The notes below the pieces were generated by a model that made no database searches, was not told where the DNA came from, and worked only from the letters and a program-made list of their open reading frames with translations. From positions 1 to 47,045 of the forward strand of contig JBHLQH010000026.1 of the NCBI GenBank assembly GCA_048884965.1: a stretch of DNA of 47,045 nt, given 5' to 3'. Shown in pieces: positions 34,301-47,045 of the stretch. The translations under genes and the position numbers were made by a program. This DNA is from Candidatus Thorarchaeota archaeon (GTDB taxonomy: Archaea; Asgardarchaeota; Thorarchaeia; Thorarchaeales; Thorarchaeaceae). How positions within the stretch are numbered: position 1 is the stretch's first letter; each line of letters starts with the position of its first letter.

Positions 34301-35257
34301 ATGGTTATCGGCTACGAGGTTTCTGAAGACGGAACACTGCAAGAGGTAGAGTTGACAAAGGACGGACTAGACTCAACCAAGGTCGTCTGTGTTGTCGACG
34401 ATGAAACAAAGAGTATCTACCTGTGGAAAGGAGTCCAAGCAGGCGTTCGCAAGAAGTTTATTGGAGCACGAGTTGCGACCAATCTTAGAACTGAATACGG
34501 ATTTCACTTTAAAGTGAGGCCGCTTGATGAAGGTGAAGAACCTCCAACCTTCTTCACTGCGTTGGATGGGAGCACTGCCGCGACTCGAGTAATGAAGCCA
34601 GGCGATAAGGCACCACCTCCAACACCGCCAAGTGCGGCTGCATCAGACACTGCAGCAGAACCTGAAGTTGAACATGTCAAGACCGAAGTAGTCCGTAAGG
34701 AACCAGAGGTCAAGACCACAACTCCACCCACCACGCCGAAGGTTTCTACCAAACCTCCAACTCCACCCGTTACAACAACCTCAACTACTCCTACCTCAAC
34801 AAGGCCAGTCACCTCGAGACCCGCAGCTACAACCTCTGCTCCTATATCGCAGGACATACTGAGTGATATGCTGAAGGAACTTGAGCAAGAAGAGCCACCT
34901 GAGGGATACCAGAGAGAATTACTAATCGTATACAATGAGATATACACAGTCGCGGAACATAAGATATCGGTCTTCGGTCAAGAAAAGGTCGAACGCAAGT
35001 TCGAGAAAGTCAAGGATCCACCTGAAGGAACGTTTATGGCTGAAGGATTCATACCGCGAGTTATTGTTAAAGATGGAAGGGTCTTGGGCATTGAACTACT
35101 CAAAGGTACGCCAGATGCTATTCTAAGCCCAATCAAAGCAGAGATGAAAGAGAGATTGGGAGACCTCATCAGCTTCTTTAGATCTGAAGTCGAGGAAGAT
35201 GAAATAAAAGAAGGAAAGAAGAAACAAGATGCAAAGAGAAAACTTGTCGCTAAATAG
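34301..35257 (+). CDS. Asgard gelsolin-domain protein (1DGelX-like: gelsolin domain, Pro/Thr linker, domain X)
   Basis: LDSTKVVCVVD...IYLWKG..AGVRKKFIGARVA...DEGEEPPTFF is a gelsolin repeat; followed by a low-complexity linker and a PEGYQRE-containing C-domain. Confidence 0.85.
   Translation: MVIGYEVSEDGTLQEVELTKDGLDSTKVVCVVDDETKSIYLWKGVQAGVRKKFIGARVATNLRTEYGFHFKVRPLDEGEEPPTFFTALDGSTAATRVMKPGDKAPPPTPPSAAASDTAAEPEVEHVKTEVVRKEPEVKTTTPPTTPKVSTKPPTPPVTTTSTTPTSTRPVTSRPAATTSAPISQDILSDMLKELEQEEPPEGYQRELLIVYNEIYTVAEHKISVFGQEKVERKFEKVKDPPEGTFMAEGFIPRVIVKDGRVLGIELLKGTPDAILSPIKAEMKERLGDLISFFRSEVEEDEIKEGKKKQDAKRKLVAK
34595..34849 (+). repeat. Pro/Thr-rich low-complexity linker in the gelsolin protein
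   Basis: APPPTPP...TTTPPTTPKVSTKPPTPPVTTTSTTPTSTRP. Confidence 0.8.
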
Positions 35258-35269
35258 GAGGAACCACCT

Positions 35270-35656
35270 TTGTCCACAATAGATCCACAGAAAGAGAAAG
35301 AGCTAGTAGAGCTCCTAATGGGATTGACGAATTATGCCGACCTTGATGCCATTGCTGTCGTAAGCAAGCAAGGAGTGAAGCTTGCGTACTTTGCCACAGA
35401 GGAATCGGATGCAGATCCTGATCTAATGGCTGCTGTCAGTGCAGCGCTACTCGTTCAAGGAGAGATGGCAGCAGATAAACTCTATCTCAGTGAACTCTAC
35501 GAGGTTATTGTAAGAGGCAAAGAGGGATTCGTTGTACTCTCGCATGCAGGAGATTTTCTGATCATGGGCTCTGCGAAGGACCTTACATCAATGGGACTGG
35601 CAGTTACTCAGATGCGCAAGTACGCCATTGAGATTGGAAAGCTGTTAAGTAAATAG
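35270..35656 (+). CDS. Roadblock/LC7 (MglB-like) domain protein
   Basis: AIAVVSKQG..LA, DLMAAVSAAL, VIVRGKEGFVVL, MGLA...MRK.A..I..LL; GGAGG RBS directly after the gelsolin stop. Confidence 0.9.
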   Translation: MSTIDPQKEKELVELLMGLTNYADLDAIAVVSKQGVKLAYFATEESDADPDLMAAVSAALLVQGEMAADKLYLSELYEVIVRGKEGFVVLSHAGDFLIMGSAKDLTSMGLAVTQMRKYAIEIGKLLSK

Positions 35657-42705: not shown

Positions 42706-44571
42706 CTAAAGTTCGTCAAGCTTGTTGTCAAAGGATTTTAGAAGTTTTTCACGAACAGAATCGATTGCCCCTTTTGCCTTTGTTATCTCAGGATGCTCAG
42801 CTGGCCGATGAGCACTTGTCAAAGCATCGGCAGATGCAATACTTTCAATGTCAGACCTCAGAGCACTTAGAGAGGACTTCAGCCCATCCATAGCGGTTCT
42901 AACCTTGGTCCGGGTCTCTGCAAGCTGGATATTGTCACTTGCAGACGCCATTGGTATAGAATCATATGTAGATTCCAAGTCATGGATTACTGCTGATACT
43001 TTGTCTTTTAGAGCGGCTATATTGCTTTGGATCTTCTTTCTTCTAGATTCCGTTTCTTCCCACTTTTGAAGCAGGGTGGTATTCTCAGATTCTAAGGTTC
43101 GAGTACGAACGTCAAGAAGGTCAACACTTGATCTCTTCAATGACTCAAGGATTCCCCTAGCGTACTCCTTCTTCTCTGCGGTACGCTTCTGAGTGATCTT
43201 CGTTTGTAATTCTTCATCACCTAGAAGTCGGTCAATGGTGTCAATCAATGAATTTACAATGGCTATTCGTGCTTTCGCTGAAGCCAATTCCTTCTTACCT
43301 ATATCTGCACGTGCAGTGTTTAGAGAGGATTCAAGTGATGATGCAATCTGAAGCAAAGGATCCGATTCTAATTCGGAGGCATCAATCGAGGGATACAAAA
43401 TACTGACTCGTCCTTCGGTGACATCCACATCTTGAAGCAGCTTCTCGGTTTCTTTGAAATCCTTCAGAACAAAAGTTCCTGGGCCTGCCTGCAGAGTATA
43501 TTCAGTCTTCAGGTCATCAGCATAGGACCCTTTTAGAACAACAGAGAATTCCTTCACGCCCATCATATCTTCAGCTGATTGTGCTGTCACCACAAAGAAT
43601 CTGGTTTCGCCAGGGGGAATCGTTCCCACCTTGGTTTTGATATCTCCGGAATGAATTTTCAATCCGTCATCCAGATGCCATTCAACAACAACATTACTTG
43701 CTGGGCCATCACCCTTGTTTTCGACAACTGCGCGGATCTCAAATTGCTCCTTGAATGTCATATCAATGGGAAGCTCAAGTTGAGAGGATATCTTTGGAAC
43801 CTTTAGTTTGCCACGGAGAATTTCTCGGACCATCTCCACGCCTTTATCAACATATGTAGCGAATTCCTGTGCCTTCGCTCCTGCAAGTGCAGCCTTCAAT
43901 TCAGTCGCTGCAGCTGTTTCAGCGTCTGCGAAGGCATTAAGATCCATTGAGTTGATGGCACTCTCAAGCATTTGCGGAATTTGACTGAGTCGAACGACTC
44001 CAGGAAATCTCAAACGTGAGGCATTCTCAGCCGCGTAACGTCGTGCTCTTGAAAACGCTTCATTCTCCTTCCCAATCATCAAGTAAATCATACTACCAGT
44101 TATCGCAAGGGCTGTGCCATTTTTAGTTTCAGCGTCCTCATTCCACATCAAATGCTCGGTGGAGGCACCAAACAAATCATCTGCACCTTGCTCGTAGGCC
44201 TTTAGCGCGTTCTCAACATCTGACAGTTCAGAGTAGACATCACCAGCTAAGCACATATTCAATGAAGCGGCTTTGTAGCTCTTTGATGCACGGTACTCAT
44301 TTGCTGCTTTCCAGAAGTTCTCAGCAGCTTGCTTTTGTAATTTTTCAACATTCGCATAGTCTCCTTTCATCTCACTGGCTCTTGCAGCCTCAAGGAATTT
44401 GTGACCGGCTTCAGTGAAAGATTGCTTCATAGCTTCCTTGGTTGCTTCTTCAACCATACGTCTGATGTCTTCTTCTGACATGAGATTCTTCTCCTCTCTG
44501 ACTAATTGCCTATGAGTGACTCTGGTTTTCTCTTTTTCGCCTTCAGGTGATGACTGTGGGAGGGTCACCAA
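42706..44571 (-). CDS. Multidomain protein: alpha-SNAP/TPR-like solenoid, CARDB/Ig-like domain, helical bundle/coiled coil (alternative start ATG 44481)
   Basis: aa ~50-250 Ala-rich helical repeats (AAENFWKAANEYRASKSYKAA); aa ~258-370 FEIRAVVENKGDGPASNV...GTIPPGET Ig/CARDB signature; aa ~372-621 heptad-rich helices. Confidence 0.8.
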   Translation of the reverse strand: MVTLPQSSPEGEKEKTRVTHRQLVREEKNLMSEEDIRRMVEEATKEAMKQSFTEAGHKFLEAARASEMKGDYANVEKLQKQAAENFWKAANEYRASKSYKAASLNMCLAGDVYSELSDVENALKAYEQGADDLFGASTEHLMWNEDAETKNGTALAITGSMIYLMIGKENEAFSRARRYAAENASRLRFPGVVRLSQIPQMLESAINSMDLNAFADAETAAATELKAALAGAKAQEFATYVDKGVEMVREILRGKLKVPKISSQLELPIDMTFKEQFEIRAVVENKGDGPASNVVVEWHLDDGLKIHSGDIKTKVGTIPPGETRFFVVTAQSAEDMMGVKEFSVVLKGSYADDLKTEYTLQAGPGTFVLKDFKETEKLLQDVDVTEGRVSILYPSIDASELESDPLLQIASSLESSLNTARADIGKKELASAKARIAIVNSLIDTIDRLLGDEELQTKITQKRTAEKKEYARGILESLKRSSVDLLDVRTRTLESENTTLLQKWEETESRRKKIQSNIAALKDKVSAVIHDLESTYDSIPMASASDNIQLAETRTKVRTAMDGLKSSLSALRSDIESIASADALTSAHRPAEHPEITKAKGAIDSVREKLLKSFDNKLDEL

Positions 44572-44577
44572 CTGAGG

Positions 44578-44868
44578 CTAGTAGACCTCACGCGGGGAAT
44601 GTTTCAGTCTATCTGGAAGACTGCCACCATGTCCCTCAATTACAAGCTCATATCCTCTACCCCAAGTGGCTCCACTTTTACTTTTGAAACCAGCTTTTGA
44701 TATTCCTCTGGCAGCTCTTTCAGCAGACCTTCTTTGAATCATACTGACACCACCCGGAACGCTCAGAATGAGCTTTTTCTGTGACTCATCTACTTTCAGA
44801 GTAATCTCAGAGGCAGGTTGTCCCTTGACCTCGTGAAATTGACTATCGCGATATTCTAGAAACGTCAT
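44578..44868 (-). CDS. Small hypothetical protein, possibly a divergent single gelsolin/ADF-like domain
   Basis: 96 aa; the pattern LKVDE..KKLIL......SMIQRRSAERAARGI parallels the gelsolin domain at 34301. Confidence 0.7.
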   Translation of the reverse strand: MTFLEYRDSQFHEVKGQPASEITLKVDESQKKLILSVPGGVSMIQRRSAERAARGISKAGFKSKSGATWGRGYELVIEGHGGSLPDRLKHSPREVY

Positions 44869-44957
44869 CTAATCAGACCCTTCCCTAATCCAATATTATG
44901 AAAAAAGTGTCATGGCTGCATATTAGCATTTGGCCGATGAAGTGATACCATTGTGTC

Positions 44958-45015
44958 AAAGAAAAAGAATAGAGTTGTGAGTCAAATGGTCCCTGATGAG
45001 ATCACTGACTCACGA
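44958..45015 (-). terminator. Hairpin plus U-tract terminator (minus strand)
   Basis: GTGAGTCA (44977) ... TGACTCAC (45013) stem followed on the minus strand by CTCTATTCTTTTTCTTT. Confidence 0.55.
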
Positions 45016-45038
45016 TTTTGAAATAAATCCCAATAGTA

Positions 45039-45314
45039 TTAGTCTGGCGGTGGAGGTGGAGGAGGTGTGTCGTCCAACTTAGTACTGACTGGTGTAAGAA
45101 CCGAGTCACGCTTCTTCTTTGTGAAGAAGAATCCACAAACCACAAAAACAACACCCAACACTGCTAGCACAGCACCAATAATGGTGTCATATCCGGCTAC
45201 GACAGTGATGTTCATCGTTGGCAACAAGACAAAGACTGCGCCTACGATGATCAGAATTACGCCTAGACATATTGGTCCAGAACGAACATATTCTCGCCAC
45301 GTTAGATAGGACAT
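45039..45314 (-). CDS. Two-TM membrane protein with C-terminal poly-proline tail
   Basis: Start at ATG 45314 (GGGAG RBS); two TMs, KKKR, then DDTPPPPPPPD*. Confidence 0.75.
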   Translation of the reverse strand: MSYLTWREYVRSGPICLGVILIIVGAVFVLLPTMNITVVAGYDTIIGAVLAVLGVVFVVCGFFFTKKKRDSVLTPVSTKLDDTPPPPPPPD

Positions 45315-45416
45315 TTTGAGATCTCCCTGACCGATACGGAAAACAATCCGTTCAGTACACTTCCACACCATGTGCTGGGAGTGATTTAAGATTATTGCGC
45401 GAGCATCAAGTGGGCT

Positions 45417-46274
45417 TTACTCTATGGACATTGTCACAATGCAGCCAGTAGATGATGTGTTAACACCGATTTTCAAATCGGTGACCTGTGAGACTTTCTG
45501 TGCTAGAATTTCATGAAATGCACAGGGATATCCTGCAGGCATCCGGTTGCCATTTGGATCAATCTTGCGAGCCATCTTCAAGAGCTCACAACCTTGCGTT
45601 TCTACCGACACATTCAAGGTGCCGGTTTTTGGAAGTTGACTATCGCCCGAACAGCTGTAAATAAGCTCTCCGAAGCGTATTGGAAGAATAATTGGATCTT
45701 CTGGGTCAATCCACATATGAACAAGTTCATTTGCGAGCTGCTCAAACATCGCAGTCAGATGTCCACTGGGAAGAGTGGCAGCATATACCGCGAGCTCACA
45801 GATTGTAGTGCCATGAGCTTCCGCAATCACTTTCCATGCATTCTTACCAGCTTGTGGAGTAACGGTGGGTAAGTGACCTACGGGAGCATGAGGTAGTTCC
45901 TTGGTGTCACTTGTGACGACCGTGCTTTCTTCCGAGGACGAACCCACTTCAATATATGATTCACCATCGTCATAGTAGAGATCGGGCACTTCATAATTTG
46001 GAGAGATCCCAGATGTCTGATATTGCCGTGAGAATTGCATCAAGCGACCAGCGCACATCGCCACCGCATGTCGACTCAATCCTTCAACCCTAATGTGACC
46101 ATAGATAACTCCAACAAAATTATCGAGACTCAGTTCGGTCATAGTCTTTTCAGCAAGAATCTTCTTGCCCCTAATCACACGACAAGCCCACATTTCATCC
46201 ATGACGCCAGCCTGAGCAGAGTAGCTTGTATTGGTAATCATGACCGTAGGAGATATTGGGTAGAATCCAGACAT
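45417..46274 (-). CDS. Hypothetical two-domain protein with C-terminal V4R/H-NOX-clan-like domain
   Basis: C-terminal VSVETQGCELL...YPCAFH...GCIVTM three-Cys pattern; unknown N-terminal domain; low-complexity linker. Confidence 0.7.
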   Translation of the reverse strand: MSGFYPISPTVMITNTSYSAQAGVMDEMWACRVIRGKKILAEKTMTELSLDNFVGVIYGHIRVEGLSRHAVAMCAGRLMQFSRQYQTSGISPNYEVPDLYYDDGESYIEVGSSSEESTVVTSDTKELPHAPVGHLPTVTPQAGKNAWKVIAEAHGTTICELAVYAATLPSGHLTAMFEQLANELVHMWIDPEDPIILPIRFGELIYSCSGDSQLPKTGTLNVSVETQGCELLKMARKIDPNGNRMPAGYPCAFHEILAQKVSQVTDLKIGVNTSSTGCIVTMSIE

Positions 46275-46347: not shown

Positions 46348-47045
46348 TTAGTGCATCTTGATCTTCATCGTGATGATGGAATGCGGGTCAACAGGTAATG
46401 ATACTGAATCCGAGCTCACCATTAATTCACCAATCTCATTACCAATGAAGTCTACAAGAATAGCACTATCAACAACTCGACGGAATTTCAGAGTACTTGT
46501 CCCTGAACATCCCTTAATCTCATAAAGACGTACGATGTACTCTGAATCCTTTTCGCTGGGCCTAAAGCATGAGAGCTCCAATTCAGCGCCTTCAATTACC
46601 AGTGCTGGTAATACATTGTCATTGCTAGGGATGAAATTGGCATCAAGTGGAAAAGCAATCAGAGGTAAGCGGTGCTCATCCGATCTTCTATGCACCATGC
46701 CAGATTTCCAATCAGATTTGTGTGGTAGCAGAGATATCCTGAAAGAATGCTCGCCGTGCTCTCGCGCAGTCTTTGCTTCCATAACCTCATCATCTCTGCC
46801 ATGAGATAGCTGTGTTGGACTTCTAAGAAAAGTCAAACCAAACTCTCCATCTTCATACTGGAATTCGTGAATACCAATCGCAGAAACGCCCAATCCATAT
46901 TCAGGACTCCTGCAATCAACCCAATCCAAAGCAGAGAAGATACCGTGTCCATGGTCCTCAAAGGAAGACAATTCGGAATGCATAACATGCTTCTCTTCCA
47001 CCATGAATTGAGAACCTGTAGAAACATGATTCGAGTAGATAGGGA
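46348..47045 (-). CDS. Alpha-mannosidase (GH38), C-terminal part; ORF extends past the window end
   Basis: The frame is open to the window edge (PIYSNHVSTGSQFMVEE...). WVD, LTFLRSP, GEHSFRISLLPH..DW, IVRLYE and VDFIG are GH38 C-domain motifs. Confidence 0.85.
   Translation of the reverse strand, partial: PIYSNHVSTGSQFMVEEKHVMHSELSSFEDHGHGIFSALDWVDCRSPEYGLGVSAIGIHEFQYEDGEFGLTFLRSPTQLSHGRDDEVMEAKTAREHGEHSFRISLLPHKSDWKSGMVHRRSDEHRLPLIAFPLDANFIPSNDNVLPALVIEGAELELSCFRPSEKDSEYIVRLYEIKGCSGTSTLKFRRVVDSAILVDFIGNEIGELMVSSDSVSLPVDPHSIITMKIKMH

Follow-up and report, generated by a model that had tools for sequence, protein, structure and literature searches.

The 47,045-bp window analysed here is the whole of contig C26 of a 4.09-Mb Candidatus Thorarchaeota genome (G000), and its positions 42706-46274 are filled by four co-directional open reading frames (ORFs) on the minus strand, referred to below as genes A, B, C, and D. 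Each of them is a real gene with orthologues across the family, and none of the encoded proteins has a significant match in Pfam or NCBIfam, which bears out an earlier note on this DNA that had described four consecutive genes without ordinary annotation. Structure models, family profiles, and gene neighborhoods point to a probable V4R/TRAPPC3-like protein (A), a predicted membrane hairpin with a poly-proline tail (B), a hidden gelsolin fold (C), and a predicted scaffold with SNAP-type hairpins (D), encoded in a family-wide cluster of two gene pairs. A literature search found no description of the A-B-C-D cluster, of the C family, or of the D family.

Eukaryote-like genes are rarely organized in operons, so that their arrangement seldom tells which of the products act together (PMC10933270). 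In the present locus, four unannotated proteins whose folds are of the trafficking or actin type are encoded next to one another throughout a whole family; the locus also offers a candidate natural poly-proline ligand for the Thorarchaeota (Thor) profilin, exposes a predicted gelsolin-fold family that sequence annotation has missed, and sets a SNAP-like repeat protein near Cdc48. Each of these four features can be tested with recombinant proteins.

Gene order and transcription units

Conservation of the cluster was followed in 24 other genomes of the same family, which span 16 genera. Orthologues of C are present in 22 of these genomes, those of D in 21, and those of A and B in 20 each, and the order A-B-C-D is found wherever the contigs permit a view, as judged from coordinates, tblastn, and independent gene calls. 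The whole cluster is missing from G002, G008, and G024 (completeness 60, 92, and 88 %, respectively), and these three family genomes without a member are without all four. The sole rearrangement seen is that of G018, in which A-B and C-D lie on separate contigs and 32 kb of unrelated sequence stands upstream of C. Outside the family, a sister family (G025) carries B directly upstream of a shorter D of 461 amino acids (aa), its C homologue being on another contig and A not being found with the query used, while the D homologues of more distant Asgard families (460-560 aa) have neither A nor C beside them, and weak homologues of A and of C also occur in those families. The full four-gene cluster is specific to this family. 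A test set in advance was whether the gene order reaches beyond close relatives; at the level of the family it does, A-B-C-D being retained across all 16 genera.

Two sequence elements lie between B and C. The first, at the place where the earlier note had put a terminator splitting the genes (about 44960-45015), is a terminator-like hairpin of -18 kcal/mol (z -2.9; none of 200 shuffles was as stable) that is followed by the T-rich tract TTCTTTTTCTTT. At the same spot in the loci of about nine different relatives, a stem-loop of differing sequence is again accompanied by a T/C-rich tract, although the T-tract is weak in one of them. The second is the conserved motif CCAAATGCTAATATG, and the two together are best read as a terminator followed by a candidate promoter of the B recognition element (BRE)/TATA type for a C-D unit. 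The spacer between C and D (75-99 nt), by comparison, holds no terminator-like element and carries a Shine-Dalgarno-like site. Because a terminator-like element and a promoter-like motif separate B from C, the division of the locus into two short transcription units, A-B and C-D, is well supported by the sequence, and the breakpoint in G018 falls exactly between the two pairs, matching this split. Among the sequencing data sets listed for this stretch none is of RNA, and the four of DNA all stem from a single study of sediment.

Homologues and independent gene calls also bear on two start codons. For D, the most likely start is the ATG at 44481, giving 591 aa; the Shine-Dalgarno-like sequence GAGAGGAG (44491-44498) stands 10 nt 5' of it, D homologues of 585-595 aa share an N-terminus MSxE, and the gene called independently is 592 aa long. 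Translation of B probably begins at 45314 and yields 91 aa, the length of the independent gene call, and its homologues open with MSYLTW.

Predicted folds of the four proteins

The clearest fold is that of C. Its AlphaFold2 model (predicted local distance difference test, pLDDT, 83.8, from a 61-sequence alignment) has Thorarchaeota ProGel (7c2f) as its best match in an exhaustive structure comparison, with Z 8.8 and a root-mean-square deviation of 2.9 Å over 72 aa at 17 % identity, and beneath ProGel the next 30 or so matches are all gelsolin or cofilin domains, every match with Z of at least 4.6 being a gelsolin, villin, fragmin, cofilin/ADF, or Sec23 gelsolin-like domain. Foldseek likewise returns 7c2f first (probability 1.00, E 2.8e-3). 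The modeled fold has the gelsolin topology, with a central beta-sheet against a single long helix. A Sec23/24-like identity was considered and rejected, the Sec23 gelsolin-like domain reaching only Z 5.0, under all true gelsolins. Among sequence-based comparisons, Pfam Gelsolin is assigned to 28 % of the members of a feature neighbor of C (score 0.94) in the ESM Atlas, which contains no model of C or D, and the C profile matches the N-terminal domain of Asgard proteins of 250-315 aa (E 1e-10 to 5e-5). In two of these proteins Pfam Gelsolin matches marginally at the corresponding site, so that the link in sequence from C to gelsolins is transitive. One C homologue, in the complete genome G036, precedes a gene for a Pfam-verified two-gelsolin protein by about 1 kb. 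Neither the single C protein nor the C profile gave anything significant against the sequences of the Protein Data Bank (PDB), and an hhalign comparison of the C family with the two ProGel-type ORFs of the genome was not significant, with single sequences on one side and hence low sensitivity.

The model and its matches make a strong case that C is a cryptic ProGel-like single gelsolin domain followed by a conserved C-terminal peptide, and the mini-gelsolin proposed in the earlier note is upheld. Full-length homologues, among those listed, share 63-91 % identity. The long helix is strongly basic and contains several invariant residues (R47, E50, R51, and R54), the tail is basic rather than acidic, and the DWG motif and Ca2+-site residues of gelsolins are not conserved. 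A paralogue of C with the same SPREVY tail (G000:C13:51124-51414; L033:4622-4942, minus strand) sits between a zinc-finger/RING-like ORF and a PRC-barrel protein, and such a second copy occurs in nearly every family genome.

Protein A was modeled with a pLDDT of 83.7 and consists of three parts. Structure comparison of its C-terminal domain returns Thor TRAPPC3 (7yh2; Z 6.2 over 123 aa), Bet3 (2cfh; 5.7), the Drosophila TRAPP core (7b6d; 5.4), PoxR (5fru; 5.1), and DmpR (6iy8; 4.8), with BcsD and YslB also among the matches, and each of the named TRAPP and V4R matches spans the entire domain. The V4R/TRAPPC3 fold is a two-layer one, made up of four helices and a sheet of four strands. TRAPPC3, V4R, and the other matched proteins are reported to share one fold, and Thor TRAPPC3 forms dimers and binds zinc through cysteines (PMC10933270). 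In 61 A sequences, distant Asgard homologues included, C229, C251, and C278 are invariant and H254 is nearly so, in a spacing that, judged by eye, parallels the cysteine motifs of the recognized TRAPP and V4R ORFs of the same genome. By shape, the domain also matches an ATC_hydrolase cluster of the Atlas (TM-score 0.63). Searches by sequence were negative: A matches neither Pfam V4R (PF02830) nor TRAPP (PF04051), both of which are found in the present genome on other contigs only, and the A protein and A profile gave nothing significant against the PDB. For the V4R-like assignment of the earlier note, the fold matches and the Cys/His pattern thus lend moderate support and no signal comes from the sequence; a V4R/TRAPPC3-like C-terminal domain is nonetheless the best reading and a likely one, and A is probably a soluble protein with a predicted zinc site. 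The N-terminal domain has no convincing fold match, its best being a designed protein (Z 5.4) and a WW domain (4.4).

In total 199 homologues of A were collected, and those named by source are almost all labeled Thorarchaeota or the wider Asgard phylum. Distant homologues of 330-344 aa from other Asgard families (L022:1033-2067 in G030 and L023:905-1897 in G036) share the N-terminal domain, a proline-rich linker, and the same cysteine pattern. The one in G030 is convergent to the same alanine aminotransferase gene that flanks D in the present genome.

In protein B, the operon partner of A, hydropathy peaks at 2.9 in aa 13-31 and 45-63, corresponding to two predicted transmembrane helices. The segments on either side of the hydrophobic helices are basic, which makes a cytosolic position of both ends probable. 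The C-terminal tail reads KKKRDSV...(D/E)DxPPPPPPPD, with the run of seven prolines at 45045-45065, and it is kept in all orthologues, those of the sister family included, so that the poly-proline membrane anchor of the earlier note was recovered as described. Runs of at least six consecutive prolines are found in five open frames of the whole genome, B among them. Thor profilin binds poly-proline weakly, with a dissociation constant (KD) of 200-500 µM (PMC8410842), and given a conserved and rare poly-proline tail on one side and a poly-proline-binding profilin on the other, B is a plausible candidate for a natural ligand of Thor profilin. The other long proline run of the same genome occurs in a very acidic 314-aa protein (G000:C21:29437-30381, minus strand), which has PPPPPPPPD near its end and terminates in ...RRRRARRLFFGG.

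Protein D, whose domain layout was obtained from an alignment with distant Asgard homologues, was searched at several levels. At E ≤0.01, Pfam assigns SNAP to 21 of 51 D family members, CARDB to 16, TRAP_beta to 10, and DUF11 to 3. The best SNAP match (5.5e-8, 33 bits against a cut-off of 25) covers model positions 22-104 of 282, and the present D protein itself has no Pfam SNAP match. When the N-terminal profile, distant homologues included, is compared with the PDB, the top seven structures are all alpha-SNAP/Sec17 (best E 9.5e-6); the single D protein and the full-length profile gave nothing significant there. An hhalign comparison with five true SNAPs reached 95.9 % (E 6e-9) over 86 columns, aligning D 17-102 with SNAP positions ~46-143, and D residues 103-227 have no match. 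In a search of 1.8 billion proteins with the D profile, true SNAPs scored 1e-8 to 2e-6 and were outscored by many multi-repeat TPR_12 proteins. About a third of SNAP is matched, and the full-length SNAP architecture (~280 aa, with a nine-helix sheet and a C-terminal bundle) is not seen in D. Of the SNAP-Ig-coiled coil protein that had been proposed, approximately 86 residues of SNAP-type hairpins therefore stand, with Sec17/alpha-SNAP as the top structures, and the remainder of SNAP stays unmatched in the face of better-scoring TPR_12 proteins. These partial matches indicate that D carries SNAP-type hairpins, and membership in the SNAP family itself goes further than they reach.

The middle region of the present D is matched by DUF11 (0.018) and FxLYD (0.003), both under the cut-off, and its last ~245 residues resemble helical bundles non-significantly; the immunoglobulin (Ig)-like and helical regions are predictions from sequence. 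The C-terminal extension is specific to the family in which C adjoins D. In about 36 of the 51 D proteins the C-terminus reads ...(K)KxEL or ...ELx, like the acidic, leucine-bearing ends of SNAPs, and this ending is not kept in the closest relatives of the present genome. The penultimate leucine of alpha-SNAP is needed for stimulation of NSF. A surface-protein identity of D was dropped because the N-terminus is hydrophilic and no signal peptide or membrane segment is apparent by inspection. D is predicted to be a cytosolic scaffold in which SNAP-type hairpins are followed by a CARDB-like Ig domain and then by a long helical region. Several Thorarchaeota family genomes also have a paralogous family (415-436 aa; L031:2260-3507 and L032:1246-2547) that combines TPR-like repeats with a CARDB-like domain. 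It shares the Ig domain with D as its point of relation and belongs to an Atlas cluster in which 25 % of the members have Pfam SNAP.

Table 1. Positions of the genes, predicted domains, and sequence elements discussed (window coordinates, unless residues or a locus handle are given).
Feature	Position	Strand	Size or content	Basis
Gene A	45417-46274	minus	285 aa	
A, N-terminal domain	aa 1-90		three-strand beta-meander and two helices	AlphaFold2 model
A, linker	about aa 95-140		low confidence, pLDDT <50 at 107-123	AlphaFold2 model
A, C-terminal alpha/beta domain, probably V4R/TRAPPC3-like	aa 144-285 (45420-45845)	minus		AlphaFold2 model
Gene B	45039-45371 as listed; likely start 45314	minus	110 aa as listed; 91 aa from the likely start	homologues and independent gene call
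Terminator-like hairpin and T-rich tract, 3' of B	44958-45013	minus	hairpin 44977-45013; tract 44958-44969	folding energy; counterparts in relatives
Conserved motif, candidate promoter	44919-44933	minus	~50-60 nt upstream of the C start	nearly invariant in B-C spacers of relatives, several genera
Gene C	44578-44868	minus	96 aa	
C, predicted gelsolin/ADF-fold domain	aa 1-82			AlphaFold2 model and structure comparison
C, tail	aa 81-96		GGxLPDRLxxSPREVY, most positions invariant	alignment
Gene D	42706-44571 as listed; 42706-44481 from the likely start	minus	621 aa as listed; 591 aa from the likely start	
D, N-terminal region, SNAP-type TPR-like hairpins	aa 1-227 (43801-44481)	minus		
D, middle region, CARDB-like Ig domain	about aa 228-345			sequence matches
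D, C-terminal region, long helical	aa 346-591			sequence
GH38 alpha-mannosidase-like gene	46348-47045	minus	C-terminal part, cut by the contig end	Glyco_hydro38C2, E 1.4e-6
Gelsolin-like ORF	34301-35257	plus	318 aa	BLASTP 1e-8 to a Pfam-verified two-gelsolin protein; no Pfam match of its own
Roadblock/LC7 ORF	35270-35656	plus	12 nt after the gelsolin-like ORF	Robl_LC7, 8.5e-11
Small ORF upstream of cdc48 in relatives	L066:1851-2285; L058:2487-2897; L064:2365-2811; L063:1729-2172; L072:1706-2158			

Neighboring genes and the question of a joint function

It is tentatively proposed that the products of the two operon pairs assemble close to the membrane as an adaptor in contact with the actin system, a reading held at somewhat less than even confidence. 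B would anchor a poly-proline ligand to the inner side of the membrane, for recognition by Thor profilin, by the beta-meander of A, its operon partner, or by both. C may bind actin in the manner of ProGel, which binds and bundles actin in vitro (PMC7444086), or of cofilin. The C-terminal peptide of C would contact either actin itself or the repeat domain of D, the other product of the same operon, and D in turn would supply multivalent scaffolding. Every physical contact in this scheme, among the four products and with their partners, is one that we infer. Complex prediction for full-length D with C gave a score of 0.00 against a mark of 0.32, which speaks neither for nor against binding.

Several observations weigh against this adaptor assembly. 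With regard to the parts, the Z scores of 5-6.2 for A are within the range of unrelated folds, its top-ranked match is a de novo designed protein, and an hhalign comparison of the A family with the TRAPP and V4R ORFs of the same genome was not significant, although single sequences on one side make this test of low sensitivity. C has no match to Pfam Gelsolin (PF00626) even at E ≤1, a search of its own genome with PF00626 finding six other sites, none of them on C26; the family does not conserve the tryptophan of the DWG motif, the present C reading TWG and the consensus RIG; and the binding of ProGel to actin is itself very weak, with a KD of about 337 µM (PMC7444086). With regard to linkage, the C paralogues of nearly every family genome and the C homologues elsewhere in Asgard are not beside a D gene, and the D homologues of other Asgard families have no adjacent C and, in five of six cases, no adjacent B. 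Approximately 20 kb around the cluster, comprising cdc48, the aminotransferase, the roadblock pair, and the ABC transporter, is also syntenic across genera, so that the conserved order of A-D partly reflects descent. In another Thorarchaeota genome, for instance, a single 1.55-Mb contig presents an oxidoreductase, a small ORF, CDC48, GH38, A, B, C, D, the aminotransferase, roadblock, a 324-aa gene, and the ABC transporter. The functionally linked module of membrane, actin, and SNAP elements that the earlier note had envisaged is not borne out as such: no result ties the parts to one another, the joint function is inferential, and the synteny of the wider neighborhood weakens the argument from gene order.

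The most serious alternative, judged somewhat unlikely, is that there is no joint function, A-B and C-D being independent operons, or all four being independent genes, whose adjacency was inherited in a slowly rearranging region. A could then be a small-molecule-binding V4R sensor, in line with the proposal that V4R/TRAPPC3 domains are ligand binders (PMC10933270), and D a generic TPR/Ig scaffold, as the higher scores of TPR_12 proteins against its profile would allow. The synteny of the whole region, the conserved terminator- and promoter-like elements between the pairs, their separation in G018, and the sister family in which only B and D remain together are all consistent with this view. 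Set against it are the contiguity of A-D while the flanks vary, both in the presence or absence of GH38 and through the insertion of some 7 kb between the aminotransferase and the roadblock pair in the present genome, the short spacers inside each pair, and the succession of four eukaryote-like folds without Pfam annotation.

A second alternative draws on the genes upstream of A. In the flanks of 15 of 16 relatives a CDC48 gene (727-735 aa) with the orientation of A is located upstream of it, as it is in G018 and in the present genome through contig C96, and this conserved gene was absent from the account of the earlier note. In five relatives cdc48 and A are directly adjacent (~230 nt), and in ten a GH38 alpha-mannosidase-like gene of 828-840 aa stands between them. 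In the present genome the GH38 gene cut by the window end continues on the 4.4-kb contig C96, which encodes its N-terminal two thirds (L070:1-2016) and, further upstream, the CDC48 ATPase (TIGR01243, 1058 bits; L070:2107-4296, minus strand). The two contigs overlap by 70 aa at 93 % identity, so that strain variation may be the cause of the break in the assembly. Elsewhere the genome encodes a second full-length CDC48 (54 % identical). In the relatives, cdc48 is directly preceded by a conserved ORF (136-150 aa; M(I)DDDF...RNGV.EI) with a C-terminus that is alpha-crystallin-like by eye.

On these grounds the relation of D to the Cdc48 encoded upstream might be that of alpha-SNAP to NSF, a relative of Cdc48: D would be a SNAP-like adaptor, B and A its membrane receptor, and C an accessory subunit of an assembly that extracts or disassembles membrane-associated protein complexes. 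This is considered doubtful, clearly more so than independent function of the genes. It would account for the near-constant presence of a full-length CDC48 gene, which G018 keeps with A-B after the relocation of C-D, for the first rank of alpha-SNAP/Sec17 among the solved structures and the high hhalign score to true SNAPs, and for the SNAP-like C-termini of most D proteins. However, an unrelated GH38 gene intervenes between cdc48 and A in the ten relatives and in the present genome and not in the other five, which shows that the junction tolerates insertion, D lies two transcription units away from cdc48, and no cdc48 lies within about 4 kb of the D homologues in other Asgard families. Moreover, cdc48 and the small ORF before it may form a stress pair of their own, only about a third of SNAP is matched, and the EL tail is not kept in the closest relatives. 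The boldest extension, in which D is held at the membrane by B and A and presents membrane-associated complexes to Cdc48 while C couples the site to actin, would make the locus an archaeal forerunner of the NSF-SNAP principle; it is regarded as improbable, and no NSF or SNARE partner of D was identified, although no search aimed at SNAREs was made. If true, it would signify that the disassembly of complexes by AAA proteins, TRAPP-like proteins, and the cytoskeleton were already linked before eukaryotes arose. Over these alternatives, the adaptor assembly at the membrane and the actin system is retained as the working proposal.

On the other side of the cluster, the gelsolin-roadblock operon that had been placed about 7 kb away is present on the opposite strand (Table 1). 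Its first ORF combines a gelsolin-like N-terminal domain, a Pro/Thr-rich linker, and a C-terminal domain. The same pair stands about 1.3 kb from D in another Thorarchaeota genome (L072:12093-13555).

Comparison with known systems

Archaea are known to pair genes for small heat-shock proteins with those for AAA+/Cdc48 heat-shock proteins. The small ORF that precedes cdc48 recalls such pairs in its position and in its alpha-crystallin-like appearance, but an HSP20 identity was not confirmed, the Pfam HSP20 match being non-significant for all four orthologues searched.

In comparison with alpha-SNAP/Sec17 (PF14938), D is predicted to share alanine-rich helical hairpins of the same spacing, these proteins being the best solved-structure match of its N-terminal profile, and its gene also lies near that of an ATPase of the Cdc48/NSF family. 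The differences are that approximately 86 of some 290 SNAP residues align, that no C-terminal globular bundle is matched, and that D continues into an Ig-like domain and ~245 aa of predicted helices.

A is likened to Thor TRAPPC3 (PDB 7YH2) and to the bacterial V4R proteins PoxR and DmpR by a predicted two-layer alpha/beta fold of ~140 aa and by a cysteine-based pattern at the junction of beta-sheet and helix, in A a putative metal site. In contrast to these proteins, A has three cysteines and a histidine instead of four cysteines, adds a conserved N-terminal domain and a disordered linker, and matches at Z 5-6 without a Pfam or hhalign signal.

The tail of B resembles the poly-proline tracts of formin FH1 regions and of Ena/VASP in its unbroken run of 7-8 prolines on a flexible, probably cytosolic segment, and peptides of this type are bound weakly in vitro by Thor profilin. 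Unlike those proteins, B presents a single run on a 91-aa protein with two predicted membrane helices, without FH2 or EVH domains.

Finally, C and Thorarchaeota ProGel (PDB 7C2F; PMC7444086) come from the same lineage and are both single-domain proteins of ~90-100 aa with a gelsolin/cofilin fold, which for C is a modeled one. At 17 % identity to ProGel, C has neither a Pfam Gelsolin match nor the conserved tryptophan of the DWG motif, and it possesses a strongly basic long helix and the conserved peptide LPDRLxxSPREVY, which ProGel does not have. Canonical genes of the ProGel and 2DGel types are present elsewhere in the same genome.

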